The notes: generated from the sequence alone by a model not told the origin. DNA of 64,000 bases from Candidatus Multivoradales bacterium (GCA_965248925.1 CBDFLE010000006.1:5056001-5120000), one strand, 5' to 3'. Shown: positions 921-15,473, counted from the stretch's first letter. Made by a program: numbers and translations.

Positions 921-2753
921 ATGCGCCGACCAGTTCTACTTTGCCTTCTCGGATTGCTCTGGGTATCCACGGCGGCGAGCCTCGCCGAAGTCCGCGACGG
1001 CAAGATGTTCGATGCCGGGCTACGGTTGGAAGCCCCAGCGGACAACGCGCCCGAGGCCTTGGGTCAGCTGTCTGGCTGGGTTGGGGATTGGGATCTAGAG
1101 CTGGTGATCCACCGCCAGGGGCAAGAGAGCCAGCAGTCTGTCGGCATCGCCAAGGTGACTTACATGAACCGCGGTCACGGTCTGATGGAGCGCACTCGAA
1201 TCGCTGATATCGACGGCCAGGGACACTCCCAGGCGATCCTCGGCATGGTGGCGGTGAATGGCAACGGTGTTTGGACGGTCAGCGAGGGGGATAGCTGGAG
1301 GGAAGTGATCACGATTTGGAGTGGCGCCTTCGCTGGCTCCGAGCTGGTGCTGCACGACGCTGGCCGGCCAGGAGGCGGTAGCGCTCTAGTACTGAGGCGC
1401 AGGACCTATGCCCAGACCAGCGATCAGCAGCGGTCGTTGAAGATCGAAGTTTCCCGGGATTTCGGCGTCTCTTGGACTTTGGTGGGTGAGCGCACCTACC
1501 GGCGGCGGTCGCCGCGTCCGGACTTCTTTCCGGTCGGTAGCGATATTGGCCTGGCGGCTCCTGATCGCCCGGCCGGGGCTGCCGAGTTTGACTTTTTACT
1601 CGGCGAGTTCCAAGCCAGTCACTTCTTGCAGTTGCCCCAAGGACCGATCCGCCTGGCTGCCAACGCCTCCGCGGTAAGGGCGCTCGACGGTCACGGTATT
1701 CTGGAGTTCGGCTGGCATGATCTGAATCCTGCTTTGCCCAATGCCGCCACCACGATTCTGCGTATTTACAACCGATCGATGCGGCACTGGGAGAGTCTCT
1801 TTCTATCCAACCGCACCAATACGCCGTTGCATTTCGGCGGCGTGCGCGAGGGTCGGCGAATCGTCCTGCACCCGTTTGCCGCTCAGACCGGGTCGGCGAC
1901 ACTGTGGCAGTGGATCTTCTTCGACCAACGACCCGACGCTTACCGATGGAAAGGGCTGACCAGCAACGATCGTGGACGGACCCAACAGATCAGCTGGACG
2001 ATCGACTTCGTTCGCCAAGGGACCGAGCCGGCGGCCGTGGGGAGTTTCGAAGAGGTCCGTACCAGCAGCTCCGACGGTCTCAAAATCGTTGGCGATCACT
2101 ACCGAGCGGCCCTACCCGCGGCGACGACCGTGCTGCTTTTCCATCAGGCCGGCGCCAATGCTCAGGGCGAGTACGGCAGCACCGCGCGGCGCCTGGCGGA
2201 GGCAGGATTCGAGGTCTTCGCCTGGGATGCGCGCGGTGGTGGCGATCGATTCGACGCGATCAATCGCACTCTAGCGGCCAGCCCATCAGCGCGCGATCAG
2301 TCCTTCTGTGCCGCCTATCCAGACTTGCAAGCAGCCCTGCGGTATGCGGTTCTCCAGGGGTCCGGTGGGCCGATTTTCGTTGTCGGCAGCAGCTACAGCG
2401 CCGCCTTGGTGGTGCGGCTGGCCGCCGAACATGGCCCTCAGCTGGCCGGGGTCGCCGCCTTCTCGCCGGCCAGCGGCAGAATGGAAGCCTGCGCTGTCGA
2501 CACTTGGCTGCCGCTCCTTGACGACACCCCTTTGTGGGTGGCCAGGCCCGAAGTTGAAACTACCCACCCAGGGGTTATTGCTCAGGCTGAGCTGTTGGCC
2601 GAACACGGGGTCGAAGTGTTGGTGGTCGCCGACGCTAGCCACGGCGCGGCGATGCTCGACGCGGAGCGCTCCGCCGGTGATGTCGAGGAGACTTGGCAGC
2701 GGCTGCTGGCGTTCTTCGCCGATCCCAAGGCGGCTAGCGGCCCGTCGCGTTAG
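921..2753 (+). CDS. Secreted fusion: two DUF1579-like beta domains plus C-terminal alpha/beta hydrolase
   Basis: Signal peptide; repeated L..WVGDW / FDFLLGEF domain starts; LLFHQAG, WDARGGG, nucleophile elbow GSSYS and late SHGA His motif. Confidence 0.7.
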   Translation: MRRPVLLCLLGLLWVSTAASLAEVRDGKMFDAGLRLEAPADNAPEALGQLSGWVGDWDLELVIHRQGQESQQSVGIAKVTYMNRGHGLMERTRIADIDGQGHSQAILGMVAVNGNGVWTVSEGDSWREVITIWSGAFAGSELVLHDAGRPGGGSALVLRRRTYAQTSDQQRSLKIEVSRDFGVSWTLVGERTYRRRSPRPDFFPVGSDIGLAAPDRPAGAAEFDFLLGEFQASHFLQLPQGPIRLAANASAVRALDGHGILEFGWHDLNPALPNAATTILRIYNRSMRHWESLFLSNRTNTPLHFGGVREGRRIVLHPFAAQTGSATLWQWIFFDQRPDAYRWKGLTSNDRGRTQQISWTIDFVRQGTEPAAVGSFEEVRTSSSDGLKIVGDHYRAALPAATTVLLFHQAGANAQGEYGSTARRLAEAGFEVFAWDARGGGDRFDAINRTLAASPSARDQSFCAAYPDLQAALRYAVLQGSGGPIFVVGSSYSAALVVRLAAEHGPQLAGVAAFSPASGRMEACAVDTWLPLLDDTPLWVARPEVETTHPGVIAQAELLAEHGVEVLVVADASHGAAMLDAERSAGDVEETWQRLLAFFADPKAASGPSR

Positions 2754-3024
2754 AGCTGTTTTCGACTTGAACCTCGCCGCTGCGACGCTGTGGCCCTCCC
2801 TTTGGCCGATCGCATTGTGGCGGTACCTCGATCTGTTGGTTAGTCTCGCGGCCTGACCGGGCTCGGTCGGGCTTGCCGATCTTTCGTTGGCAAGAACTTG
2901 CGTCCGATGGTCCGTTGAGGGCGCAGATTACGCGTTTAACCAATAGACGCCTGGTCCGGTAGGTCTTCGTCCACAAGACGGCGAGGGTGCGCGTCCGTTC
3001 CGGCCCCACATGTCGAGTTGATGG

Positions 3025-6000
3025 ATGATCTCTAGATCGAATTCTACCTTTGGCTGGCCGTTCCTAGGGCTGGTTCTCGCTCTTGTGCTGGCCAGCCAAA
3101 TTGTCCGAGCTGACGGTCCTGAATCCGTACCGCTGGTTTTTGCGGCCGGCAGCGCGCGGGGCAACTACAGCGCCCTGGCGAGTGCCATCGCCGCGAAGAC
3201 TGAGGGTTCGCAAAGGACAATTCGGGTAAGACAAACCACCGGTTCCTATGAGAATGCCGGCCTGCTGCGCGATGGTGAAGCTGATCTCGCGCTTTTGCAG
3301 AGCGATGTTGCCTACATGGAGCACTACAACGGTCGCCCCTTTGTAGCTCTTGCGTCGGTCTACACTGAGCCGATTCACGTGATCGCCTATCGCGGTCTCG
3401 ACCTGCACCGGCTTTCCGAAGTGATTTCACTGCTGGAAGAGCGGAGCCTGACCGTCGCCGTTGGCGCTCCCGGAAGCGGCAGCAGCGCCCACGCCTTCGC
3501 TCTCTTGGACGAACTCGGTCTGGCGCCGGAGCGGATCTCTAAGCTACCTTTGTCTCTCGGGACAGCAGCTTCGGGCCTGCGTGACCGGAGTATTGATCTG
3601 GCATTCTTGACTTCCGCTGTTCCGGCGACAGTGATCAAGGAACTCGCTGATGACCGGATCATCTCGCTGCTGGACATTGATCGAGACATAGCGCAGCTAC
3701 TGCGACGCAAGAATCCCTTCTTCGTCGTGGCTGAGATTCCCTTCGAAGCCTATGGCGTCAGCAAGCGCAACGTGCAAACCCTTGGCACTCGCACACTGCT
3801 GGTAGCCCGGCCTGATCTCGACGGCGATGCCATCTGGCAAGTGCTCGACGCACTCGACTTGGTTGCTGTTGCGGCACCCGCGGAGGGGCCGCTGTCCATG
3901 CTGCGGGACCTCTCGCCATCTACTGCCTTGCGTGGTTTGCCAATTCCAGTTCACCCTGCGGCACAGCAGTACTACACAGAGAGAACCAGTCTGGTTCGCC
4001 GCTGCTTCGATGCGCTACGACGAAATGCAGCGTTGATCTTCGTGCTCGGTACGCTGGTGCTGGCTTCGTCTCGGCTTTCCCCCCTAGCCTACTTTGTGCA
4101 TCAATTTGTCTTGGGAAGAGTTCTGTTGGCCCTGGTCATGGTCTGGCTGCTGGGTTCTGTAAGTATGCACTTGATAGAGGGTTCCAAGAACAGCGCCTTC
4201 AGATCCTTTGGCTCCTCCGCGGTTGCTATCTTGCATTATTTGTTCAGTGGCCTGGAGTCCAGCTACCCGGTCACCCCCGCCGGCCACGGGATTGCTATTC
4301 TGGTGCTCTCGCTGGGTGTCGCGGTGGCGACCCTCTTCACAGCGACCTTGGTGACCTTGTTAGTCGAGCAGGCACTCAACATCAAGACCCTGCGCCGCAA
4401 GCCAATTCCCTTTCTCAAGCTCTCCGGTCATGTCGTACTAGCTGGCTGGTCAAGCCGCACGCGACGGATTATTCAACAGCTTCGCAATCCAGAATTGCGT
4501 TTCAAACCTGCTGTGGTGGTGATAGCTCCAGAGGCTACCAAGACGACAGTGAGAAGTCGCCGGGGATTTCGCGGAGTTTGGGTGGTGGAGGGAGATCGGA
4601 CTCAGGCCAGCACCTTACTCGAGGCCGATATCACCACCGCGTCTCATGCCATCGTCCTCACCGACTCCTCTGCTGACAACGGTGAAGACTTGTCGACGAT
4701 TTGCAGCAGCATGGCGATTAGGCGTCTGGCTCCAGAGATTCACACCGTGGTCGAAGTACGCGCTTCGACTGGAGCCGAACGCTTGCTCCGCGACCGGACT
4801 CGCGAGGTTGTCGATACCGAAACTCTGGCCGAACGGCTGGTGAGCCAATGTGTAATTACCCCTGGGATCGCGCAGGTGTTTGACGAGCTATTGTCTTTTG
4901 GTGCCAACTCGCAGGAAATCTATATCTTGCCACTCGAGCGCCACTTGGACGGATCGAGCTTCGCTGAGTTGCGCGTCCGGTTGCGAACCTACGAATTGAT
5001 TCTACTCGGCTATTGGCTCAGCGGTGAGCGCAGTCCGCGTCTCAATCCAGATCGACGGGCGGCCAGCATTCCCCTGAAGTTTATTAGCGGTCAGCAAGGG
5101 GACAGCCTACTAGTCCTTGCAGACTCTCCGCGAGCTCTCAACTCAAGACTCGCGCGACTGAAGCAATGGAGGACCTCGATGAGCAAGACAACACCGTTGG
5201 CAACCCTCGAGTCGCCAGCCGCAACGGCAACGCAGGATCGCGCTGTTGAGTCAGGTGACGGCCCGACGCAGCGGGCCAGCCGGATAGGGATCTGCGGTTG
5301 GAACGACCAAGCTAGAGCGGTCATTAGTCAGCTCCAAGAATCGGTGATAGCGAGCCATCAGGAATTCGAGATCACGGTGATCGACGGGCCGACAGGGGGT
5401 GGTGGCAAGCACGAGTGCAGCAGTGGCGTGCGATTTGTATTCGGCGATCCGACTCGCAGCGCGGTGCTGGAGAATGCTGGTGTTAATGATATGGAGACGT
5501 TGGTCGTGCTGGCTGATCGCGGCGGCGCGGAGAGCGAGAGATTTTCCGATCACCGTTCTTTGGTGATCTGTCTCTCCGCCAGAGACGTCAAACCCGATCT
5601 CCACCTAGTGGTCGAGGTCTTGCAATCCGCTAACCAAGAACACTTCGAGCGACTTGCCGGTGTCGAGGTGGTTTCGGTTGAGGATCTGGCCGAGAAGCTC
5701 TTGGCTCAAGCGGTGATCAGTGTCGGTATCACCAGCGTGTTTCTGGAGCTGCTGACGGCCACCGAGGATTCCAACGAGGTTTATGTCGTCCCGGTGCCCG
5801 AGCGCTGGCGGGGGAAGACGTTCAGTCATATCGCCGTTGAGGTCGAGGAGAGTGAGCTAGCGGTTGTTGTTCTGGGCTATCGGGCGATGCCCGCTGAGGG
5901 GCGGCCGGTGATAGTGCTCAATCCCCGACACCGTAAGACCGAACGCGGTGGGGTGGTTGACTGGCGGCAGCAGCCGTTGGTCAGCGAAGACGCGCTGGTG

Positions 6001-6030
6001 GTGATGGCTTTCGAGGAGCCAGACTGGTAG
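3025..6030 (+). CDS. TAXI-family solute-binding domain fused to a 2TM-pore ion channel and two RCK (TrkA-N) domains
   Basis: TAXI motifs GS..GNY, TTGSYEN, ALLQSDVA, YTEPIH, VGAPGSG, PIPVHPAA; hydrophobic helices with pore-like LFSGLESSYPVTPAG; RCK starts HVVLAGWS and IGICGWN with GD.T motifs. Confidence 0.85.
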   Translation: MISRSNSTFGWPFLGLVLALVLASQIVRADGPESVPLVFAAGSARGNYSALASAIAAKTEGSQRTIRVRQTTGSYENAGLLRDGEADLALLQSDVAYMEHYNGRPFVALASVYTEPIHVIAYRGLDLHRLSEVISLLEERSLTVAVGAPGSGSSAHAFALLDELGLAPERISKLPLSLGTAASGLRDRSIDLAFLTSAVPATVIKELADDRIISLLDIDRDIAQLLRRKNPFFVVAEIPFEAYGVSKRNVQTLGTRTLLVARPDLDGDAIWQVLDALDLVAVAAPAEGPLSMLRDLSPSTALRGLPIPVHPAAQQYYTERTSLVRRCFDALRRNAALIFVLGTLVLASSRLSPLAYFVHQFVLGRVLLALVMVWLLGSVSMHLIEGSKNSAFRSFGSSAVAILHYLFSGLESSYPVTPAGHGIAILVLSLGVAVATLFTATLVTLLVEQALNIKTLRRKPIPFLKLSGHVVLAGWSSRTRRIIQQLRNPELRFKPAVVVIAPEATKTTVRSRRGFRGVWVVEGDRTQASTLLEADITTASHAIVLTDSSADNGEDLSTICSSMAIRRLAPEIHTVVEVRASTGAERLLRDRTREVVDTETLAERLVSQCVITPGIAQVFDELLSFGANSQEIYILPLERHLDGSSFAELRVRLRTYELILLGYWLSGERSPRLNPDRRAASIPLKFISGQQGDSLLVLADSPRALNSRLARLKQWRTSMSKTTPLATLESPAATATQDRAVESGDGPTQRASRIGICGWNDQARAVISQLQESVIASHQEFEITVIDGPTGGGGKHECSSGVRFVFGDPTRSAVLENAGVNDMETLVVLADRGGAESERFSDHRSLVICLSARDVKPDLHLVVEVLQSANQEHFERLAGVEVVSVEDLAEKLLAQAVISVGITSVFLELLTATEDSNEVYVVPVPERWRGKTFSHIAVEVEESELAVVVLGYRAMPAEGRPVIVLNPRHRKTERGGVVDWRQQPLVSEDALVVMAFEEPDW

Positions 6031-6080
6031 CTCTCGTATCTCGCTGTAGTAGGATGGCTACTGACTAGGGGAGATTCTAG

Positions 6081-7046
6081 ATGATCCAGTTTTTGCAGAC
6101 CTACCGTCGGGTGGTAGCGGCGCTGAGCATTCCTGTGCTCTTGGCTCTTACTTCTTGTGCCACGGTCGACCCGCAGCCGTTTTCCAACTTTCAGCGCGCC
6201 GCGCAAACCCTGCGCGACTCTTCGGCCAGCGCGCTGAAGGCGGTGGAAAAAGAGGCCAAGACCGAGGATCTAGTGCGGGTGGCGGAAAATCCTCTGCAAT
6301 TCTCCGGGCTGCGGTTGCAGTTTCTCGAGCCGGCTTTCAACTGGACTTACCCGCAGGGGGAGAAGGCGCTGTTGTTCACCAGTCTGGCGTCGCGCAACCA
6401 GGTGGCGACCAAGCTCAATGCGGCCTTTGCCGACTATGCCGGCCTGTTGGTCAATCTGACCAGCGCTGGTCAGATGACTCAAGCGCAGCTCGATCAGCAG
6501 GTGGCCGATATCAACGCCAATGCGCAGACCGTGCTCGATGCTCTGGGTGCCAAAGTGCCGGCCGGATCGATCGAGCTGTTTTCGCATGCCGGCGTGGATC
6601 TGGCCGCGGGATTGGTAGATCGGGCTCGGCGGCGGGCCTTGGAGAAAATGTTGGCCGCCAATCAAGGGGCGGTGGATAAATTCGCCGCCCTCGGCGCCCA
6701 GCTGATGGTGGACAACAGCAACGATATCAACACTCAATACGACGATGACTTTGTCGAGCTACAGCGCGGTTTCGTACCGGCGTCGGTCGACGGCCGGGGG
6801 CCGGTTCTTGATCAGGTGCTGAGCCTCAACCAAGCGACCGGCTCGGCGATGGATCTCAGTGCGCAGCTCTACGCTTCTTACCGCCAGCTACCCGCCGCTC
6901 ACCGCCAACTGCTCGATAGCTTGAATAACCAGCGGCCGAGTTTGACCGACATCGACGATTTTCTCGGCCGTGCCACGCAGTTGGCCAAGCTGGCTGAGCA
7001 GGTGGTAGCAGAAAAGAAGAAGCCGGCGAATTCGCCGGCCAACTAG
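6081..7046 (+). CDS. Helical lipoprotein of unknown function
   Basis: Lipobox-like LALTSC after a basic/hydrophobic N-terminus; GGGGAG RBS; Ala/Leu/Gln-rich helical composition. Confidence 0.75.
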   Translation: MIQFLQTYRRVVAALSIPVLLALTSCATVDPQPFSNFQRAAQTLRDSSASALKAVEKEAKTEDLVRVAENPLQFSGLRLQFLEPAFNWTYPQGEKALLFTSLASRNQVATKLNAAFADYAGLLVNLTSAGQMTQAQLDQQVADINANAQTVLDALGAKVPAGSIELFSHAGVDLAAGLVDRARRRALEKMLAANQGAVDKFAALGAQLMVDNSNDINTQYDDDFVELQRGFVPASVDGRGPVLDQVLSLNQATGSAMDLSAQLYASYRQLPAAHRQLLDSLNNQRPSLTDIDDFLGRATQLAKLAEQVVAEKKKPANSPAN

Positions 7047-7081
7047 CGGCTTACCCAGACCCAACCCGCAAAGGAACACTC

Positions 7082-7456
7082 ATGGCGGACCAAGAACTCA
7101 ATCCCCTCCTGGGCGCAGCTGATCGGCGAGAGTTGATGCGCCAAGCGAACCGCATGCGTGGCAAGTTGATCGATCTCGAACTGGTGCTCTCGGTCAACAA
7201 CCTGCAAGATGAACTGGCCAAGGTGCGCGAACAGGAAAAGAAATTGTCGGCTGAAATTCGCCAGCTGCGAATTCAGATCGCCTCAGACTGGCGCGCCGAC
7301 GCTAGCGAGCTATTGCCGCAGATCGCCGAGGCCAACAGTCAAATCCAGCGGGCGATCCGCGATCTCTCCAATAAGGCAGAGACCGCCTCGCGAATCGCTA
7401 AGGTGATTGGGCTGGTGGGCAAGACCGTGGGGTTGGTCGGCGGAATACTGGCCTGA
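7082..7456 (+). CDS. Small coiled-coil protein with hydrophobic Gly-rich C-terminus
   Basis: AAGGA RBS; heptad-like sequence; ends IAKVIGLVGKTVGLVGGILA. Confidence 0.7.
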   Translation: MADQELNPLLGAADRRELMRQANRMRGKLIDLELVLSVNNLQDELAKVREQEKKLSAEIRQLRIQIASDWRADASELLPQIAEANSQIQRAIRDLSNKAETASRIAKVIGLVGKTVGLVGGILA

Positions 7457-7569
7457 GGGGTGAGGGCTGAATGCCCGGCAGCCGCAAGGGTTTCTGCAAT
7501 CGAAAATAGCGCTCGGTGAGGTGGTGGCGATCGGTGGAAGCCGACCACCACGCAGGGTGGCAGCCGAGA

Positions 7570-7971
7570 TCAGAGCGGAACGCAGGACAAGCCGAGACGT
7601 CCTCGCTTGCAGATGCCGCTGTCGAGGCCGTCGTGGGCGGCGCAGGCCGGCTGAGCTTGTGAACAGCAAGTCCCCAGCCCGGAGTCGGGGCAGCTGTACA
7701 GCAGGCCGATGCCGTCGTTGCATTTGAAGGTACAAGTGATCCCCGGCGTCTTGAAGACTGCCGCTTCTGTGTCGGCCTCGACTCGGCTGTCGAGTCTGGA
7801 GCTGGCAGCCTCGGCGCTGCCTAGCCTCTCGCCCGCCGCCGCCGCCACGGGCTCCTTCACCACATTTTCCGGTGTACCTTCAGGTGTTGCAGCATTGGGC
7901 GCTGCCGTTGCCGCTAGCACTGCTGCGCAGGCGATGGCCGTGAGCATCGACGTTTTCCACCACTTTTTCAT
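7570..7971 (-). CDS. Secreted small cysteine-rich protein
   Basis: AGGAGG 7 nt before the ATG at 7971 (MKKWWK...); signal peptide, low-complexity linker, C-terminal domain with 8 Cys. Confidence 0.7.
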   Translation of the reverse strand: MKKWWKTSMLTAIACAAVLAATAAPNAATPEGTPENVVKEPVAAAAGERLGSAEAASSRLDSRVEADTEAAVFKTPGITCTFKCNDGIGLLYSCPDSGLGTCCSQAQPACAAHDGLDSGICKRGRLGLSCVPL

Positions 7972-8062
7972 CAACAAGCCTCCTTTTCGAGCGGTCTCGG
8001 GACAGCCGTCTGCCGACCCTCTGGACCGGTCTCAGAGATCTATGCGCCAACTAGCTGCGAAG

Positions 8063-8132
8063 TGGCTAATCTGATTTGGCTAATCTGATTTGGCTAGTCT
8101 GGTTTGACTAGTTTGGTTTGGCTAGTTTGGTT
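8063..8132. repeat. 14-bp tandem repeat x5 (consensus TGGCTARTCTGRTT)
   Basis: Units start at 8063, 8077, 8091, 8105 and 8119; only one unit in the sister copy at about 11869. Confidence 0.9.
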
Positions 8133-8367
8133 TGGCAGTGGAGCCGTCCACTTCGCTAGCCGCCCAGTCGACTGGCTTGGAAGGACGGAGACCGATGTCG
8201 AATGCTCTGCTCAGGTGGGTCTGGTAGCGAGCAGCGGTCGGGCTGGCGAACAGGCGAGAATAACCGCCGCCGCGAAACACCCGCAGCGGCTCCGGCCTGG
8301 CGGCGACGACATCCGCTGACACTATGCGCGATCCGTCGGTGGCGCGCAGCGGCAGCTCGAAGGAGCC
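8122..8367 (-). pseudogene. Orphan 3' fragment of an FGE-sulfatase domain (paralogue of the end of 11872-14625)
   Basis: Translates GSFELPLRATDGSRIVSADVVAARPEPLRVFRGGGYSRLF...DIGLRPSKP, near-identical to the kinase C-terminus; no 5' part. Confidence 0.8.
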
Positions 8368-8441
8368 ACTTCGGGAGCTGTACTGTCCGCGAGCCACGGG
8401 ACGAGGAGCAAGCTCGGTCTCGCGAAACACTCACTGAAGTC

Positions 8442-8450
8442 TGCTATACT
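8442..8450 (+). promoter_or_regulatory. Possible extended -10 promoter element for the C25 gene
   Basis: TGcTATACT about 95 nt upstream of the ATG at 8546; motif match only. Confidence 0.35.
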
Positions 8451-8480
8451 GCTCTCTCTTCATGCTCCATTTGGTGGAGA

Positions 8481-8548
8481 GAGAGATGGTGGAGTGAGAG
8501 ATGGTGGAGTGAGAGATGGTGGAGTGAGAGATGGTGGAGTGAGAGATG
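8481..8548 (+). repeat. 15-bp tandem repeat x4.5 (GAGAGATGGTGGAGT) spanning the RBS and start codon
   Basis: Exact units at 8481, 8496, 8511 and 8526, plus a partial unit at 8541 that supplies the real ATG (8546). Confidence 0.95.
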
Positions 8549-11500
8549 TTTGACATTCTTTGGCGGGTTTTGTACACGCGTTACTTTTGGCTGGCGATTC
8601 TGACCCTCGCCGCCCTCGGCAGTGCCGGGCGTAGCCTGGCGGAGACCATCACCTGGACCGGTGCGGCAACCAACAGCTTCGATATCTCTGCGAACCAGAC
8701 CCTCGCGACGGCCGAGAACCCCTGCAACGGCGAGACCGTGACCGCGACTTTCAGCGATCCCGATTCGGCTGCGTCCGGCGCTTTCCCAGGAGTGGCATTC
8801 GGTACCATCCCTTACATGGCGATGAACGCCGCGGCGCCCAACGAGACGGTTCAGCTCGACCTGCTATTCGGCGGTGGTCTGCCGGTCGAAAACCTCTCCT
8901 TCCTCATCTATGACGTCGACCGGTCCAACGACAGCGGCAGCTCCTGGAACGATGTACTGACCGTCACCGCCGCCTTTGGACCCACTGCCACCGCTGTAAG
9001 CCTCGCCTGCAATGATGGTGATGGAATCTGTTCCTTTACCATCACCGGCAGCGGCACCACCAATGCGATCGCCACCAGCGGAACCAACAACCCGGTGTTT
9101 ACCTCTGCCAACGGCCAGGTCGTCGTCACCATCCCGGGCCCCGTCGATAGTGTCTCGATCGAGAACTTGGCCGGTGGCCCCGGCACAAACTTCCAGGTCA
9201 TCGGATTCGGGGACCTCGACTTCGACTGCTCGACCGTGCCGGTGACGGTGGCGGCCTTCGAGAGTTCGCTCGATGCCAAAGCGTTGAGTGCAACCTGGAC
9301 CACCTCTTCGGAGACCTCGAACCTCGGCTTCGAGCTGTGGGGAGAAAGCGAGGGTGAGTGGCAAGCACTCGACATGCCAATCGTACCGAGTGCTGCCGTA
9401 GACTCGCTGGTTCCTCAGTCCTACCACACGCAGATTTCGGCTCTCCGCCTCGACCGCTTGATGCTGGCCGAGATCGACACTCGTGGCCGGCGCCGCATGC
9501 ACGGACCGTTCGAGTTGGGCAAGTCTTACGGTGGAGCGGTCACTAACCGAGCGATCGACTGGGATGCGATCCGCAGAGAGCTTGAGCGCGGATCTAAACG
9601 CGGCGTCGCTCGACCCGCCATCGACCCTGGCACCGAGCCGGCAGCCGCGGAGCTTCGGGTCGAAGAAACCGGTATTTACCGAGTGACCTACGAGCAGCTG
9701 GCATCTGTCGGCCTCGACTTGGCTGGCGTCGATCCGACCTCGATCGCCCTGACCGAACGCGGTCTTGGTGTACCGCGCCGGGTGATCACCGGCACGAGAG
9801 CCAGCTTCGGCCCTGGCGGAAGCGTCGAATTCTTGGGGCAAGCCCTCGACACCCTCTTTACAAGAACGAACGTCTACCGGTTGTCCGTCAATCGCAGCCG
9901 CGTTCTCGCCGCAACCGAACGCGAGGTCTCCCCCGGCGCCACTGCCGCTGAGGCGTACACCGAAACCCGTTGGATCGCGCCGCAGAACCAGTACAGCTTC
10001 GGCACCCCGAGCAGTGACCCGTGGTTCGCCGACCGTCTGCTGGCTTTCACCACGCCGGTCAGCCGTGACTACCCTCTCGCCGTCGACCACTTGACCGCGG
10101 GAAAGGCCGAGTTGGTGGTCGAGCTCTGGGGGGTGACCAACCTTGACGAGTTCGCTCCAGACCATCACGTCGAGATAGCACTCAACGGAACGGCACTCGG
10201 CGAGCTGATCTTCAATGGCTTGCAGTCGCAGCATCTCGCGGTCGAGATTCCAGATGGCCTGCTTTCCGAGGGCGACAACACCCTCACTCTTACCTTGCCC
10301 GCGGATACGGGAGCACCTTTCGACTTGGTGCACCTCGAAGGCTACGGTGCGACTTACCCGCGTCGCTTCATAGCGACCGGCGACCGTCTCTCGTTCACCG
10401 ACAACGCTATCGATTTCGCTGTTGATGGCCTCGGCTCGTCCAAGGTCGTAGCCTACTCTTGGGACGGCAATGTGCTGCATCATCTCGGTCCGATCAAGGT
10501 CGAGCCGACGGCGCTCGGCAACGCCGCCCGGTTCCGCGGAATCCGCAGCCGAGGACAGACCTACTGGGTCTCGACCGTCGAGTCACTCCAAGTGCCGTCG
10601 GTCTCGCTCGCTCAGCCGGCGGCGGCGGATCTTCTGAGTGGCGAGGCGGAATACCTTGTCATCAGTCACCCTAGCTTCATCGACGGCCTCGCCCCCCTGC
10701 TCGAAGCACGGCAGCGGGATGGCTACTCGGTCAAGGTGGTCGACGTCGAGGATCTCTATCGACAGTACACGGGCGGAGTTTTCGACCCCGAGGCCATCCG
10801 TTCCTATCTGAGGGAAGCGGCATCGCGCCTAGGCACGCGTATGGTGCTCTTGGTCGGGGGTGATTCCTACGACTATCTCGACCACCTCGCCCTGGGATCA
10901 GTGAGTTTTTTGCCCACGCTTTACGCGCGCGTTCACCCGGTGGTGAGCTTCGCCCCCGCCGACTCCCTGCTGGCGGACCTCGACGGCGACGGTCTTCAGG
11001 ATCTGGCTATCGGACGGCTTCCGGTCCGCACCGCGGCTGAGCTAGATCAGGTGATCAGCAAGACCCTTGCCTACGGCATGGCCGCCCCGGCGGCGGTGGT
11101 TGCCGCCGACAGGCACGATGGCCGCACTTCGTTTCGCACCGCCAGCGAGCAAATCGCCGACACCCTACCCAGCTATTTCGAGATCACGCGAGCCTACGTC
11201 GACGACCTCGGAGCGGTAGCGGCCCACGACACGCTGTTGGCCGCGCTGGAAGACGGCGTGCCCATCGTCAGCTACACCGGACACTCCGGCCCGGCGGCAT
11301 GGAGCTTTGATAACCTCCTCACCACGACCGACGCCGACGGACTCGGCAACTTCACCAGCCCGACCGCGGTATTCGCGTGGGGCTGCTGGAACGCCTATCA
11401 CTCCGTGCCGCAGTACGACACCCTGAGTCACCGTCTGCTGTTGGCACCGGCAGGTGCCGCCGCCTTGGTCGGAGCCGCCACTCTGACCAGTGCCGACTCC

Positions 11501-11680
11501 GACCGCGCCTTGGCGGTCGAAGTCTTCCGCCAGGCTTTCAGCGGCGACGAAGAAGCCGGTCTCGCCTTGGGCGAGGCTCTTGTCCGAGCCAAGCATGCGC
11601 TCGCCCAAGAAGGCCATGGCGACGACGTCTTGGTTGGAGTAACCCTGCTGGGAGATCCTGCACTCAGACTCGAGAATTGA
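8546..11680 (+). CDS. Secreted peptidase C25 (gingipain-like) with N-terminal beta-rich domain
   Basis: Signal peptide; VPVTVAAF linker and W.T.SE..NLGF domain; GIYRVTY, VLLVGG, D.AIGRLPV; catalytic SYTGHSG and WGC; C-terminal LLGDPAL. Confidence 0.9.
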   Translation: MFDILWRVLYTRYFWLAILTLAALGSAGRSLAETITWTGAATNSFDISANQTLATAENPCNGETVTATFSDPDSAASGAFPGVAFGTIPYMAMNAAAPNETVQLDLLFGGGLPVENLSFLIYDVDRSNDSGSSWNDVLTVTAAFGPTATAVSLACNDGDGICSFTITGSGTTNAIATSGTNNPVFTSANGQVVVTIPGPVDSVSIENLAGGPGTNFQVIGFGDLDFDCSTVPVTVAAFESSLDAKALSATWTTSSETSNLGFELWGESEGEWQALDMPIVPSAAVDSLVPQSYHTQISALRLDRLMLAEIDTRGRRRMHGPFELGKSYGGAVTNRAIDWDAIRRELERGSKRGVARPAIDPGTEPAAAELRVEETGIYRVTYEQLASVGLDLAGVDPTSIALTERGLGVPRRVITGTRASFGPGGSVEFLGQALDTLFTRTNVYRLSVNRSRVLAATEREVSPGATAAEAYTETRWIAPQNQYSFGTPSSDPWFADRLLAFTTPVSRDYPLAVDHLTAGKAELVVELWGVTNLDEFAPDHHVEIALNGTALGELIFNGLQSQHLAVEIPDGLLSEGDNTLTLTLPADTGAPFDLVHLEGYGATYPRRFIATGDRLSFTDNAIDFAVDGLGSSKVVAYSWDGNVLHHLGPIKVEPTALGNAARFRGIRSRGQTYWVSTVESLQVPSVSLAQPAAADLLSGEAEYLVISHPSFIDGLAPLLEARQRDGYSVKVVDVEDLYRQYTGGVFDPEAIRSYLREAASRLGTRMVLLVGGDSYDYLDHLALGSVSFLPTLYARVHPVVSFAPADSLLADLDGDGLQDLAIGRLPVRTAAELDQVISKTLAYGMAAPAAVVAADRHDGRTSFRTASEQIADTLPSYFEITRAYVDDLGAVAAHDTLLAALEDGVPIVSYTGHSGPAAWSFDNLLTTTDADGLGNFTSPTAVFAWGCWNAYHSVPQYDTLSHRLLLAPAGAAALVGAATLTSADSDRALAVEVFRQAFSGDEEAGLALGEALVRAKHALAQEGHGDDVLVGVTLLGDPALRLEN

Positions 11681-11770: not shown

Positions 11771-12117
11771 TTTTCATCAACAAACCTCCTTTTCGAGCGG
11801 TCTCGGGACAGCCGTCTGCCGACCCTCTGGACCGGTCTCAGAGATCTATGCGCCAACTAGTCGCGAAGTGGCTAGTCTGGTTTGGCAGTGGAGCCGTCCA
11901 ATTCGCTAACCGCCAACTCGACTGGCTTGGAAGGACGGAGGCCGATGTCGAATGCTTTGCTCAGGTGGATCTGGTAGCGAGCAGCGGTCCGGCTGGCGAA
12001 CAGGCGATCATAGCCGCCGCCGCGAAACACCCGCAGCGGCTCCGGCATGGCGGCGACGACATCCGCCGGCACTAAGCGCAATCCGTCGGTGGCGCGCAGC
12101 GGCAGCTCGAATGAGCC
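11771..12117. repeat. Direct repeat copy 2
   Basis: Matches 7965-8367 with scattered substitutions (about 17 counted in the coding part). Confidence 0.9.
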
Positions 12118-14625
12118 GAAGTCGCGACACCACTCCCAGACGTTGCCGACCGTGTCGTGCAGGCCGAATGGGTTGGCGCGGTAGCTGCCTACCGGCGCGG
12201 TGTGCTGGTAACCGTCGTCCCAGGGTGCGGCTCGGCTCTTCTCGATCCGGCCGGTGCGGTAGTAGCGCTGGTCGCCGATGTTGGCGGTGCCGCGGACGCT
12301 CTCAAACCGATCGCCTGCCCACCACACGCTGCTAGTGCCGGCGCGGGCCGCGTACTCCCACTGCGCTTCGGTGGGTAGGGTCAGACCGAGTCGCCGCATG
12401 GTCTTGTCGGCCGCCCACCAGTTGACCCTCTCGACCGGATGGCGCAGGTTGTGTAGCTGCCCATCGACCCACTCGCCGGCTGGCCGGGAACTGGGATTTT
12501 GGTGATTGATCCGCTGCCACTGCCCCTGGGTCATTTCGTATTTGGAGAGGAAGAAGGGATCGCCGAGGGTCACCCTGTGTATCGGCCCTTCGGAGCTGCG
12601 GGCCCAGGGGTCGAGATTGGCGCCGCTGATCTTGGCATCGTCACTTGGCGGTTGCTCCGCGCCCATGCGAAAAGTCCCCGCCGGGATCAGGACGAACACT
12701 AAGCTGGTGGTGATGCCGATCCGCAGCTGGCCATCGTTGCCGCGACCTGGAATTTCGCCAGTAGGCAGGTGGGCGAATTCCCACAGACCGCTGTGGGGAT
12801 CGCGGCCGACCGGCACCAAGCCTAGTTGAGGGGCGATTCTCAGGCCCTCGTAGGCGGGGCTGCGTTGCGGGTCGGCGATCGCCGTGATGGCCTCTTGCCA
12901 CAGCTCACCGGGTTCCTCCACGGTCTGCCGCCGGACGTTGCGGGCGACCGTCAGTCGTTGGCGCAGGCGCGCGATCTGACCGGCCTTGGGGTGGGTCAGC
13001 TGTTCGAGTTTCTCAACCAGCTCGGCGAGAAGCTGATGGCGGAACTCGGTTGCCACGTCGGCGAACACCTCGCGGCTGACCGGCCGGCCGGCAGAGTCGG
13101 CGTGCACCCGGCGGGTGGTCTCACCACCGTGCGAGCGCAGCTCTTTGAGCTGCTGCCGGTACTGGGGTAGGCGCTGTGCCAACTGGTTTGCATCGCCGGC
13201 TAGCCAGCGCTCCATGGCGTCGATCTTCTGCGGCTGGGCGGGCCAGATCTCGTCGGCTTCGCGGAGCACCCGAGCGAGCAGCTCGCGGTCCGAGAGCCGT
13301 AGCAGCTGATCGCTCTTCCCTTGACTCTCGAAGTAGAAGTGAGTGCTGACCACCAAGCCGAGGATCAAGGCTAGAAAGACCGCCGTGACGGCGCCGAAGA
13401 ACGCCCTATGACGTTGCACCAGGCGGCCCAGACGGTAGCTGAAGCTGGCGCCGCGGGCCAGCACCGCCTCGCCGCGCAGATGGCGGTCGAGGTCGGCGAG
13501 CAGCTCCGACACCGACGAGTAGCGCTGTTCGCGATCCTCCGCGAGGGTGGTTTGGACGATGGCATCGAGATCGCCGCGCAGGGCCAGAGTGAGTTGGCGC
13601 GGGCCGCTGCCGCGCTCGGCAGCGATCGCGGCGCGGCGGGTGCCGGCTCGAGCCAACCGTCCGCTGGGCGTCGGCGGCTCGCTGGCCGCCTGGGCCGAGC
13701 GTGCCGCGCTGCTGCCGGCTAGCCCGGCCGCTTCGCCATGGGGCAGTTCGCCGCACAGCAGCTCGAAGAGCACCACACCGAGGGAGTAGATATCAGAGCG
13801 GGTGTCGACCGAGGGATTCCAGGGATCGGCCTGTTCCGGGCTCATGTAGGCCGGCGTGCCCATCAGCGTGCCGAGGCAGGTGTGCAGGGTCTTGTCGGTC
13901 AGCGGTCGATCGAGGGCTTTGGCGATACCGAAGTCGATCACCTTTGGCTGCGGCTCTTGATCCTCCGGTACGAGGATGTTGGAAGGCTTCAGATCGCGGT
14001 GAATGATGCCTTTCTCATGGGCGTGCTGAACCGCTCGGCAGACTTTGGTCAACAGCCGTAATCGGGCTCGCAGGTCGAGGCGGTGGTAGTTGCAGTAGGT
14101 GGTGATCGGCAGCCCTTCGACGTACTCCATGGCGAAGTAAGGCCGCCCGCTGTCGCTGATTCCGGCGTCAAAGACAGCCGCGATCCCGGGGTGATTCATC
14201 ATCGCCAACGCCTGGCGTTCCTGCTCGAAGCGGGCGACGATCTCGCCGGTCTCCATCTCCGGCTTGAGCACTTTCAGTGCCACCCGACGTTCCACCGGCT
14301 GTTGTTGAGCCGCCAGATAGACCACCCCCATTCCACCCTCGCCGAGCTGGCTGATGATGCGGTACGGGCCGAGCCAGTCGGCAACGCTGAGTTGGGAGTG
14401 GGGTGCCACGCCGCGGGCGGGGTAGGGAACGCCGAGCTGATCGCCACCCGCGGGAACTTCGAGAAAGGTCTCGGCTGCCTTGAGATGAGCGAGCAGGGAC
14501 AGGGCTTCTTCCGCTAGCGCCTGATCGTCGCCGGCGGATTCGCGGACCGAGGCGCGGCGTCGTCGAGTGGTCGGATAGCGGATAGCGCGAGCGAAAATCT
14601 GCTCGACCGCGGGCCGCTGGGTCAC
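11872..14625 (-). CDS. Membrane Ser/Thr protein kinase with C-terminal FGE-sulfatase (SUMF1-like) domain
   Basis: GEGGMGVV, VALK, HRDLKPSN, DFG, GTPAYMSPE; one TM helix; F.MG, YEMTQ, HPVE.V.W, LPTEAQWEYAAR, NPFGLHD..GNVWEW. The GTG start at 14625 overlaps the sigma TGA (GTGA); the track's extension to 15450 is not credible. Confidence 0.9.
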   Translation of the reverse strand: MTQRPAVEQIFARAIRYPTTRRRRASVRESAGDDQALAEEALSLLAHLKAAETFLEVPAGGDQLGVPYPARGVAPHSQLSVADWLGPYRIISQLGEGGMGVVYLAAQQQPVERRVALKVLKPEMETGEIVARFEQERQALAMMNHPGIAAVFDAGISDSGRPYFAMEYVEGLPITTYCNYHRLDLRARLRLLTKVCRAVQHAHEKGIIHRDLKPSNILVPEDQEPQPKVIDFGIAKALDRPLTDKTLHTCLGTLMGTPAYMSPEQADPWNPSVDTRSDIYSLGVVLFELLCGELPHGEAAGLAGSSAARSAQAASEPPTPSGRLARAGTRRAAIAAERGSGPRQLTLALRGDLDAIVQTTLAEDREQRYSSVSELLADLDRHLRGEAVLARGASFSYRLGRLVQRHRAFFGAVTAVFLALILGLVVSTHFYFESQGKSDQLLRLSDRELLARVLREADEIWPAQPQKIDAMERWLAGDANQLAQRLPQYRQQLKELRSHGGETTRRVHADSAGRPVSREVFADVATEFRHQLLAELVEKLEQLTHPKAGQIARLRQRLTVARNVRRQTVEEPGELWQEAITAIADPQRSPAYEGLRIAPQLGLVPVGRDPHSGLWEFAHLPTGEIPGRGNDGQLRIGITTSLVFVLIPAGTFRMGAEQPPSDDAKISGANLDPWARSSEGPIHRVTLGDPFFLSKYEMTQGQWQRINHQNPSSRPAGEWVDGQLHNLRHPVERVNWWAADKTMRRLGLTLPTEAQWEYAARAGTSSVWWAGDRFESVRGTANIGDQRYYRTGRIEKSRAAPWDDGYQHTAPVGSYRANPFGLHDTVGNVWEWCRDFGSFELPLRATDGLRLVPADVVAAMPEPLRVFRGGGYDRLFASRTAARYQIHLSKAFDIGLRPSKPVELAVSELDGSTAKPD

Positions 14626-15203
14626 CGGCTGTGGCCTTTGGCAGAGATCTTTGGACGGTCCAGTCGTTGGTGCAGCCAGGCCTTGGCGTAGCTCCAGTCG
14701 AGTTTGACGGTCGCTGGCGATACCTCCAGGGCAGTGGCGGTTTCGGCGATCGACAAGCCGCCGAAATAGCGCAGCTTGACTACCAGGGCCTTGCGCGGCG
14801 CCAGTGCTTCGAGATCGGCCAATGCCTGGTCGAGAGCCAGCAGCTCGCTGTCTAGAGTGCTGCCGGCTGGTTCGGCCAGCTGGCTGAGAGACGCCGGTTG
14901 TTGACCGCCGCCGCGCTTGGCGCGGCCACGCCGGCGGGCAGACTCGATGAGGATGCGGCGCATCGCCTCGCCGCAGGCGGCGAAGAAGTGCCGCCGGTTC
15001 TGCCACGAGCTGCTGCCCCGCAGACGCAAGTAGGCCTCGTGGACCAGGGCGGTAGGTTGCAGGGTGATACGGCGCCTCTCGGCCGCCATCCGACCCCGGG
15101 CCATGCTGAGCAGCACAGCGTAGACTTTCGGCATCAGCCGTTGCCCGAGCTCTTCGGGATCGTCGCCGTAGCGCCGCAGGATGTCTGTGATGACGCCGCT
15201 CAT
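14622..15203 (-). CDS. ECF sigma factor (TIGR02999-like, kinase-associated)
   Basis: TLQPTALVHEAYLRL, RRHFFA, MRRILI..AR, LRYFGGLS..ETA..L.VS..TV..DW..AKAWL; start 15203 or 15218. Confidence 0.9.
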   Translation of the reverse strand: MSGVITDILRRYGDDPEELGQRLMPKVYAVLLSMARGRMAAERRRITLQPTALVHEAYLRLRGSSSWQNRRHFFAACGEAMRRILIESARRRGRAKRGGGQQPASLSQLAEPAGSTLDSELLALDQALADLEALAPRKALVVKLRYFGGLSIAETATALEVSPATVKLDWSYAKAWLHQRLDRPKISAKGHSR

Positions 15204-15473
15204 TTGCTCTCGGATCAAGAAAGGTCGATTTCGCCCAGAATTCTAGCAGCCGCCTCTGCCGCGTCAGGAATCCGGCGGCTGGGTCACGCCAGCCAGTGAA
15301 TTCAGCATCTTCCTCGTCCTGACAGCGCAATCGGGCTGGATCGTCAATGTAATCGGGCTGGTGGGCAAGACCGTCGGGTTGGTGGGTGGACTGGTGGCCT
15401 GACTGTGAAGCCCTCTCTCCTCTTGTTGCGGATCGTTGGAGGCCTCGCACTGCTCAGGTAGACATGCCGAAGA

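Follow-up and report, generated by a model that had tools for sequence, protein, structure and literature searches.

A TAXI solute-binding domain joined to a probable cation-channel pore and tandem RCK domains in Candidatus Multivoradales

Introduction

Two known kinds of channel, RCK-gated P-loop channels and channels coupled to a binding protein, come close to the protein considered here, which in that sense is not categorically new. In MthK, GsuK and BK/Slo, a pore with two transmembrane (TM) helices leads directly into one or more RCK domains, and in GsuK and Slo these stand in tandem within one chain; all of these channels have a TVGYG filter and lack a binding domain outside the cell. 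CASTOR, POLLUX and DMI1 (PDB entries 6o6j, 6o7a, 6o7c and 7vm8) are Ca2+-regulated Ca2+ channels of the plant nuclear envelope with a tandem RCK1-RCK2 half. In the available portion of the report by Kim et al. (2019, PMC6697748), CASTOR is described as Ca2+-selective, with the filter A-D-S/A-G-N-H-A and its critical Asp in place of TVGYG. GluR0 and the ionotropic glutamate receptors join a domain of periplasmic-binding-protein fold covalently to a tetrameric P-loop pore; according to the accessible text of Ger et al. (2010, PMC2950845), the binding domain of GluR0 is split into S1 and S2 around an inverted pore that has a K+-type filter. Here we describe a gene at positions 3025-6030 (+) of a 64,000-nucleotide stretch of DNA from Candidatus Multivoradales bacterium (GCA_965248925.1 CBDFLE010000006.1:5056001-5120000; hereafter the window). 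The encoded protein places, with near certainty, a TAXI domain outside, a pore in the membrane and tandem RCK domains inside, all in one chain.

TAXI domains are known from TRAP transporters (TtGluBP, 1us4 and 8u79; VcGluP, 8s4j and 9ibo), and the domain encoded here is the same by profile and by fold. In TAXI-TRAP and TAXI-GltS systems the partner is an elevator-type transporter, whereas here it is a channel, which the public annotation of proteins of this family ('TAXI family TRAP transporter solute-binding subunit') hides. The available text of the 2025 work on TAXI-GltS (PMC12344293) reports that a TAXI protein serves, and is fused to, a non-TRAP membrane protein, and calls this unprecedented; the same portion of text describes TAXI binding proteins as solely two globular domains and contains no instance of the word 'channel'. 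In the part of the prokaryotic glutamate receptor survey available to us (Ger et al. 2010, PMC2950845), the terms 'TAXI', 'TRAP' and 'RCK' each occur zero times. Literature searches on TAXI-channel fusions, bacterial relatives of CASTOR and GluR0-type surveys, which did not cover most subscription journals and supplements and were not directed at the filter family itself, returned no published account of a TAXI-channel fusion.

We conclude that the protein is probably a ligand-sensing cation channel, and it seems to belong to an undescribed family. To our knowledge, the outside ligand is known for few ligand-gated cation channels of bacteria, and most bacterial Ca2+ entry pathways await identification. 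The family offers a compact candidate: its soluble sensor lends itself to ligand screening, and its single invariant pore glutamate to mutation. If the reading is right, the uses of TAXI domains would widen from transporter subunits to channel sensors.

Results

Domain order in a single open reading frame

Positions 3025-6030 (+) form a single 1001-codon open reading frame (ORF) that begins with ATG and has no internal stop. Profiles and models give the order along the 1001-residue chain as signal peptide, TAXI domain, extra TM helix, M1-P-M2 pore, RCK1 and RCK2. The features are as follows (conservation values are mean majority fractions; pLDDT, predicted local distance difference test).

3025-6030 (+): whole ORF, 1001 residues plus stop, TAXI-TM0-pore-RCK1-RCK2 (Pfam, NCBIfam, translation)
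3025-3111 (+): probable Sec signal peptide, residues 1-29 (read from the sequence; helix 11-22 with low pLDDT)
3130-3984 (+): TAXI (NMT1_3) Venus-flytrap solute-binding domain, residues 36-320 (Pfam, NCBIfam, PDB matches, fold, conserved cleft)
3985-4071 (+): linker helix and extra TM helix TM0, residues 321-349, predicted to run from periplasm to cytoplasm (model helices; conservation 0.43)
4075-4107 (+): interfacial helix before M1, residues 351-361, candidate coupling element (model helix 351-360; conservation 0.73)
4108-4179 (+): outer pore helix M1, residues 362-385 (full-length and pore-only models)
4207-4242 (+): pore helix, residues 395-406 (pore-only model helix 395-408; conservation 0.85)
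4243-4269 (+): selectivity-filter segment F407-S-G-L-E411-S-S-Y-P415, replacing T-V-G-Y-G-D-x-Y-P (HMMER alignment; conservation 0.89)
4276-4377 (+): inner helix M2, residues 418-451, with invariant G431 in the column of the KcsA inner-helix glycine (alignment, model)
4420-5124 (+): RCK1, residues 466-700, with the conserved loop E621...F625...S629-Q-E631 (Pfam, DMI1/CASTOR alignment, invariant columns)
5125-5274 (+): inter-RCK linker, residues 701-750, poorly conserved and probably disordered (pLDDT <50 over residues 720-749; conservation 0.28)
5275-6027 (+): RCK2, residues 751-1001, with the matching loop S-N917-E918-x-Y920 (Pfam TrkA_N, conservation, fold)

A first-pass annotation had proposed a TAXI-channel-RCK fusion at this position, and the ORF, the profiles and the predicted folds all agree with it. 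The two RCK domains that it named are recovered both by fold and by Pfam, with Slo-like_RCK at residues 466-576, Castor_Poll_mid at residues 600-677 (34.2 bits against a cut-off of 26.7) and TrkA_N at residues 756-883. Pfam gives no match over the ∼140 residues between the TAXI and RCK domains. A full-length AlphaFold2 (AF2) model built on a 33-row alignment (pLDDT 83.3) has helices at residues 311-333, 335-349, 351-360, 362-385, 395-411 and 418-451. We rejected misassembly or a chimeric ORF as the origin of the fusion, because no fewer than 30 independent proteins from metagenomes and metagenome-assembled genomes (MAGs) share this architecture, which is also found in one further genome (G162).

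The selectivity filter

The pore segment LFSGLESSYP, previously placed at 4240-4269, corresponds exactly to residues 406-415. HMMER pairs F407-S-G-L-E-S-S-Y-P-V-T417 column by column with t-v-g-y-g-d-l-Y-P-V-T of KcsA, and G431 with the inner-helix glycine of KcsA; relatives that bear GYG give the same filter register as KcsA does. Where K+ channels have TVGYG, the aligned residues are F-S-G-L-E. Relative to GYG, the first Gly is retained, the Tyr is replaced by Leu and the second Gly by Glu411.

This altered sequence is strongly conserved among relatives that are 34-66% identical to the protein overall. Y405, L406, S408, G409, E411 and P415 are invariant (33 of 33 rows), F407 is found in 32 rows, and L occupies position 410 in 28 rows, with F in the other 5. 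Across a wider set of 62 sequences, which includes TAXI fusions with one RCK, invariance is kept at E385, F392, Y405, G409, E411, P415 and G420. Expressed as mean majority fraction, conservation is highest in the filter (0.89) and the pore helix (0.85), followed by M2 (0.76) and the interfacial helix (0.73), and it falls to 0.62 in RCK2, 0.57 in RCK1, 0.54 in TAXI, 0.43 in TM0 and 0.28 in the inter-RCK linker. No other part of the protein is as conserved as the filter; conservation of the filter was one of the checks that the first-pass annotation had set for itself, and its reading survives this check. Gene decay was rejected as an explanation of the altered filter, since the ORF is intact and this segment is the best conserved.

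With an invariant Glu in place of the second Gly, four carboxylates should ring the outer mouth of the pore. Rings of four glutamates at the mouth are characteristic of pores for Na+ or Ca2+ and of non-selective ones (NaV, CaV, CNG). The filter motif of bacterial NaV channels is TLESW; the likeness to it that had been noted extends to the shared tripeptide L-E-S, and not to the TLESW motif as such or to a voltage-sensor domain, neither of which is found here. The window protein and CASTOR are both P-loop pores that lack TVGYG, each with an S/A-G dipeptide and with an acidic residue conserved in the filter. They differ in the filter sequence itself (A-D-S/A-G-N-H-A versus F-S-G-L-E-S) and in the filter position of the acidic residue, and identity is ∼20%; in addition, CASTOR has four TM segments, has no extracellular binding domain, is eukaryotic and resides in the nuclear envelope. 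The Tyr and the second Gly are lost, the Glu ring is invariant and CASTOR provides a precedent; on balance this favors a pore that is not canonically K+-selective, and permeability to Na+ and/or Ca2+ is the likelier case.

Predicted pore fold and membrane topology

A pore-only AF2 model of residues 350-465, built on a 62-row alignment (pLDDT 86.8, predicted TM-score 0.73), shows M1 at 362-385, the pore helix at 395-408, the loop at 409-417 and M2 at 418-450. A pore-loop fold, on which the first-pass reading depended, is thus seen in the model, and its structural matches are tetrameric P-loop channel pores. In Foldseek, the matches listed at ranks 1-50 are all K+-channel-type pores, including KcsA, MthK, MloK1 and KCNQ2; for KcsA the TM-score is 0.72-0.78, with a root-mean-square deviation (rmsd) of 2.1-2.9 Å over ∼90 columns and 24-29% identity. 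A wide run of VIA-align against 48,161 representative chains gave Z values of 9.8-12.3 for the top 50 matches, 49 of which are tetrameric P-loop cation-channel pores judging from the entry titles (9nyi is the exception). Channel types in this list are KCNQ, Kv, NaK, the MthK pore, KvAP, NavRh, KcsA, TRP, TPC, the TM domain of an AMPA receptor and CatSper. A sequence comparison of the pore with the PDB gave 48 matches at E ≤10, every one a K+-channel pore, the best having an E-value of only 0.029.

A TAXI domain outside and RCK domains inside require three membrane passes, which TM0, M1 and M2 would supply. With three such passes, the pore loop would enter from the outside, as in KcsA. The fold, the hinge glycine, the conservation of the filter and the RCK ring make it likely that the protein works as a tetrameric cation pore, the tetramer being taken over from the channel family. 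A four-copy prediction of residues 322-470, run without controls, scored 0.04 and was used neither for nor against this conclusion.

The cytoplasmic tandem RCK half

Compared as a whole with solved structures, the model is most similar to the gating rings of LjCASTOR and MtDMI1 (E-values 4e-26 to 1e-24; TM-score 0.74-0.77 over ∼505 residues; 20% identity), and then to Slo2.2, Slo1/BK and GsuK. Sequence searches with RCK1 likewise put DMI1 (E 3e-11) and CASTOR (E 5e-8) ahead of MthK. The closest relatives of this cytoplasmic half are CASTOR and DMI1, which the first-pass annotation did not name. Among the PDB matches, CASTOR and DMI1 are represented by gating-ring entries only, and the available text of Kim et al. 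states that, as of 2019, a structure of intact CASTOR with its pore was still needed (PMC6697748).

Ca2+ gates CASTOR through sites to which, among other residues, E493 of a G-F-E-N-C-E loop belongs; E493 chelates Ca(II) (PMC6697748, in the portion available). This loop aligns with S-F-G-A-N-S-Q-E631 in RCK1, E631 occupying the position of E493; the ligands of Ca(I) and Ca(III) are not alignable by sequence. E621, F625, S629 and E631 of the RCK1 loop are invariant in the family, and the parallel loop of RCK2, N917-E918-x-Y920, is at least 90% conserved. Reading the protein sequence, we found no G-x-G-x-x-G dinucleotide motif in either RCK domain, which favors an ion, probably Ca2+, as the inside ligand. 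An acidic loop in each RCK appears to correspond to a CASTOR Ca2+ site, so that opening is probably regulated through the RCK ring by a cation inside the cell, most likely Ca2+.

The TAXI domain

Assignment of the TAXI domain rests on two profiles, NMT1_3 (PF16868, residues 39-319, E 3.5e-35, score 122.5 bits, cut-off 27) and TIGR02122 TRAP_TAXI (residues 16-319, score 136.2 bits, cut-off 84.35). PDB sequence matches of this part include 8u79 and 1us4 (E ∼1e-24), and Foldseek superimposes the AF2 model on the same two structures with a TM-score of 0.76 and an rmsd of 3.8-3.9 over ∼300 columns. The predicted fold is a two-lobed Venus flytrap, with pLDDT ∼90 over residues 40-320. An exported TAXI domain had been claimed for this gene: profiles and fold establish the domain, while export is judged from the N-terminus, where a basic residue, a hydrophobic run (residues 11-24) and V-R-A preceding D30 make a Sec signal peptide, and with it export, probable.

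In the available text of Davies et al. (2024, PMC11574862), VcGluP is described as gripping the backbone of L-glutamate with Y45, S75, Q93, E125 and G156. HMMER alignment to the VcGluP chain equates these with Y48, S74, Q92, E115 and G152 of the present protein, and all five are kept in every ungapped row (26 of 26, 29 of 29, 30 of 30, 30 of 30 and 31 of 31, respectively). The surrounding cleft motifs are equally constant among the 31 TAXI-bearing rows: ungapped rows retain G-N-Y48 (26/26), G-S74-Y-D/E-N (29/29), Q92-S-D94 (30/30), E115 with H118 (30/30), S151-G152 (31/31) and T196 with P200 (31/31). Since the cleft retains the residues that hold the α-amino and α-carboxylate groups of glutamate in VcGluP, it appears to be maintained and suited to an α-amino acid, and the outside ligand is probably an amino acid.

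Family and distribution

A word-indexed search found 35 relatives, 30 of which carry both NMT1_3 and an RCK family (864-1372 residues, 31-66% identity). An exhaustive HMMER search with residues 325-1001 matched 2347 cluster representatives at E ≤1e-3, 813 at 1e-10 and 62 at 1e-30. We examined 176 proteins and found TAXI plus pore in 72 (46 of at least 850 residues and 26 of 600-849). Pfam, applied to 39 proteins chosen from this set, gave NMT1_3 in 30. A filter of the form [STAG]-G-[hydrophobic]-[E/D] occurs in 62 of these 72 and also in 58 proteins without TAXI; GYG forms are few and distant within the sequence neighborhood. One relative, P0047, has the filter S-G-F-E.

In a FastTree phylogeny of the pore and RCK1 (151 rows), the window protein falls in a 46-row clade (support 99) made up almost entirely of proteins with TAXI and two RCK domains. 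Most TAXI fusions with one RCK form a separate 37-row clade; unfused lineages lie between the two, and deep support is weak (59). The one-RCK fusions share the three-module logic and the S-G-[L/F]-[E/D] filter, to which the window clade adds a second RCK in the chain. Four unfused or truncated rows lie inside the window protein's clade. The short proteins P0182 and P0187 are members of TAXI clusters, showing that some 'unfused' rows are fragments of fused proteins. The window fusion is part of a large family with an S-G-[L/F]-[E/D] filter that contains at least two TAXI-fused clades. A sub-clade of one-RCK fusions (P0079, P0113, P0128, P0129, P0140, P0178 and P0110) has G-G-F-Q/E/T instead of S-G-L/F-E, and this may be a second selectivity type among TAXI-fused channels.

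Neighbors in the ESM-Atlas include clusters of 51, 92 and 140 members with NMT1_3, two of them also with Slo-like_RCK; the phyla most often represented in them are Acidobacteriota, Myxococcota and Bacteroidota. The exact two-RCK fusion is rare: in a collection of genomes from 185,579 species it was found at four loci. Three are in MAGs of Acidobacteriota (Thermoanaerobaculia); the fourth, in an unclassified MAG, matches from residue 365 at 31% identity and shows no TAXI part. Six loci were found in metagenomes, one of which matches from residue 365 only. The genome that carries the window gene also encodes, at C5:1676531-1677865 of assembly G000 (L033:232-1566, +), an unfused 444-residue channel with a two-helix TM pore, an S-G-L-E-D filter and one RCK, so that the rewritten filter is present in this organism without TAXI too.

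One metagenome relative, P0035 (1372 residues), has an insertion of ∼240 residues of hydrophobic helices between TM0 and M1. The topology is preserved only if the number of membrane passes in this insertion is even.

Proposed mechanism and alternatives

GluR0 had been cited as the precedent for a prokaryotic channel gated by a binding protein. As a functional analogy this stands, but domain class, domain order and pore orientation all differ. The order in GluR0 is S1-M1-P-M2-S2, compared to TAXI-TM0-M1-P-M2-RCK-RCK here. The window protein has an unsplit N-terminal TAXI domain, which is another class of binding protein and is tethered by an extra TM helix; its pore is in the K-channel orientation, with a non-GYG filter, and an RCK ring is present.

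We think it somewhat more probable than otherwise that the protein is the subunit of a tetrameric, non-canonical P-loop cation channel with an amino-acid sensor outside and a Ca2+-type RCK sensor inside. Its ligand gating, non-K+ selectivity and dual gating we infer from the anatomy, and gating by a ligand from the outside is plausible. In the mechanism that we propose, the signal peptide would export the N-terminal Venus-flytrap domain to the periplasm, TM0 would return the chain to the cytoplasm, and the conserved interfacial helix would then lead into M1. The M1/pore-helix/filter/M2 unit would be oriented as in KcsA and MthK, with four E411 carboxylates ringing the outer mouth of a cation pore permeable to Na+ and/or Ca2+. 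M2, with its hinge glycine, would run directly into the two RCK domains, eight of which would make up, in the tetramer, a CASTOR/DMI1/BK-type gating ring; through the acidic loops of these domains, opening would be regulated by a cation from inside the cell, Ca2+ being the most likely one. Closure of the TAXI cleft on an amino acid would be passed to the gate via TM0 and the interfacial helix, and conservation of the cleft and of the interfacial helix, from TM0 to M1, suggests such a path. We regard as doubtful, and put forward tentatively, a wider proposal: that these proteins are an undescribed class of bacterial ionotropic receptor, in which an amino acid outside opens a Ca2+/Na+ pore and a CASTOR-type ring feeds back, and that the S-G-[L/F]-[E/D] family is the prokaryotic stock from which plant CASTOR and DMI1 derive. 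Under this proposal, soil Acidobacteriota, along with members of other phyla, would convert nutrient signals straight into transients of cations or of Ca2+.

Several observations weigh against the ligand-gated, non-canonical channel that we favor. For the pore, Foldseek gave weak E-values of 5e-3 to 5e-2, all of them above 1e-3, and the best VIA-align Z value, 12.3, is under the tool's level of caution for helical models (∼13), which helix arrangement alone can reach. Ion_trans_2 of Pfam has no match to the window protein at E ≤0.1 and matches 8 of 39 relatives scanned, weakly (E 1e-5 to 1e-7). In the full-length model a helix (395-411) runs through the filter, pLDDT for TM0 and its linker is only 56-59, and five arginines (residues 320-333) lie on the periplasmic side of TM0, contrary to the positive-inside rule. 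S413 (codon 4261-4263), two residues past E411, is K in 29 of 33 relatives. In the TAXI cleft, residues of the VcGluP side-chain site are altered (Y46 to S49, H123 to Y113, D157 to S153 and Y200 to L195), and those retained may be common to TAXI proteins at large instead of marking an amino-acid ligand. Finally, the gene is dispensable in this lineage, a full-length copy being absent from all of the 40 nearest relatives, and, under a stricter filter, full-length copies were found in at least 2 of 301 genomes sampled from the phylum.

In one alternative, the same architecture would be a K+ channel, in which a single-glycine S-G-L/F filter selects K+ and the whole serves as a ligand- and RCK-regulated efflux or uptake valve like MthK, GsuK and YugO. 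The pore fold and every pore sequence match are those of K+-channel pores, which counts against the selectivity that we propose, as does the apparent resemblance of a single-glycine filter followed by L/F to the K+-selective P-loops of Trk, Ktr and HKT. The pore also keeps the first glycine of the filter, the Y-P-V-T that follows the filter and the hinge glycine, RCK rings usually regulate K+ pathways, and GYG-bearing channels occur in the same sequence neighborhood. Yet T-V-G-Y-G itself is gone, with the changes of Y to L and of the second G to E invariant in 33 of 33 rows, and the resulting ring of four glutamates is of the kind seen in Na+, Ca2+ or non-selective pores. CASTOR, the nearest gating-ring relative, also lacks TVGYG and has been measured as Ca2+-selective (PMC6697748, from the available text). 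We consider a K+ channel unlikely, if still a serious alternative.

Two further alternatives concern the TAXI domain. It might have lost ligand binding and act as a mere periplasmic cap or assembly domain, leaving gating to the RCK ring. The four altered side-chain-site residues fit this idea, as do the lower conservation of TAXI than of the pore (0.54 versus 0.76) and the four unfused or truncated rows in the same clade. However, the cleft motifs are conserved far above the average of the domain, which implies selection on the pocket, and P0182 and P0187 show that part of the 'unfused' class consists of fragments; we find loss of ligand binding very improbable. Alternatively, TAXI could be a tethered delivery module, the membrane part passing the bound solute (a small organic cation, or ammonium) as a binding-protein-dependent facilitator. 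Every characterized TAXI protein feeds a transporter, and in TAXI-GltS an N-terminal TAXI domain is fused to a non-TRAP membrane partner (PMC12344293, in the part available). The conserved cleft is compatible with delivery as well. The membrane part is, however, a P-loop pore with two TM helices, and such pores pass dehydrated or partly hydrated inorganic ions and not amino acids; furthermore, an RCK gating ring is a regulator of channels, and the same filter is widespread without TAXI (58 of the 176 proteins examined). A delivery role is in our view very improbable.

Genomic neighborhood

The gene is flanked by a 270-bp gap upstream and a 50-bp gap before the next gene. As had been noted, the window contains no DctM partner, and extending the comparison to the genome, the nearest DctM-family match lies >500 kb away: PF06808 matches are at C5:241328, C5:723214, C6:3735435, C6:4036418 and C6:4520667, compared with C6:5056001-5120000 for the window. 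Both of the stand-alone TAXI genes in the genome adjoin a DctM gene, and the DctQM-type component that adjoins a TAXI-TRAP subunit is absent beside the window gene. A scan of 2500-8700 for promoters and terminators was uninformative, with no sigma-70-like sites and 9 terminator-like sites, not clearly above the 5.1 ± 2.3 of shuffled sequence. The sequencing data listed comprise four DNA-type entries from one study and none for RNA.

The products of six neighbors (230-700, 921-2753, 6081-7046, 7082-7456, 7709-8074 and 8546-11680) were compared by tblastn with 10 related loci, giving one weak, non-adjacent match (E 0.002). In two loci (L002 and L003), Pfam shows the neighbors of the relatives to be unrelated genes. 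Immediately downstream of the channel gene, 6081-7046 (+) encodes a probable lipoprotein of 321 residues, and 7082-7456 (+) encodes a helical protein of 124 residues with a weak apolipoprotein-like match. We considered these two helical proteins as members of the system and rejected them; because neither has a counterpart beside the channel gene in the 10 related loci, the pair is probably unrelated to the channel.

Other genes nearby are of varied kinds. Upstream, 921-2753 (+) encodes a probably secreted protein of 610 residues with a C-terminal alpha/beta-hydrolase domain (S33 / dienelactone hydrolase-like) and an unassigned N-terminal half of ∼390 residues. The 1044-residue product of 8546-11680 (+) has a C-terminal Peptidase_C25 domain of the gingipain type (E 2.6e-64), and 11872-15450 (-) encodes a protein of 1192 residues that combines a Ser/Thr protein kinase domain with an FGE-sulfatase (formylglycine-generating-enzyme-like) domain.

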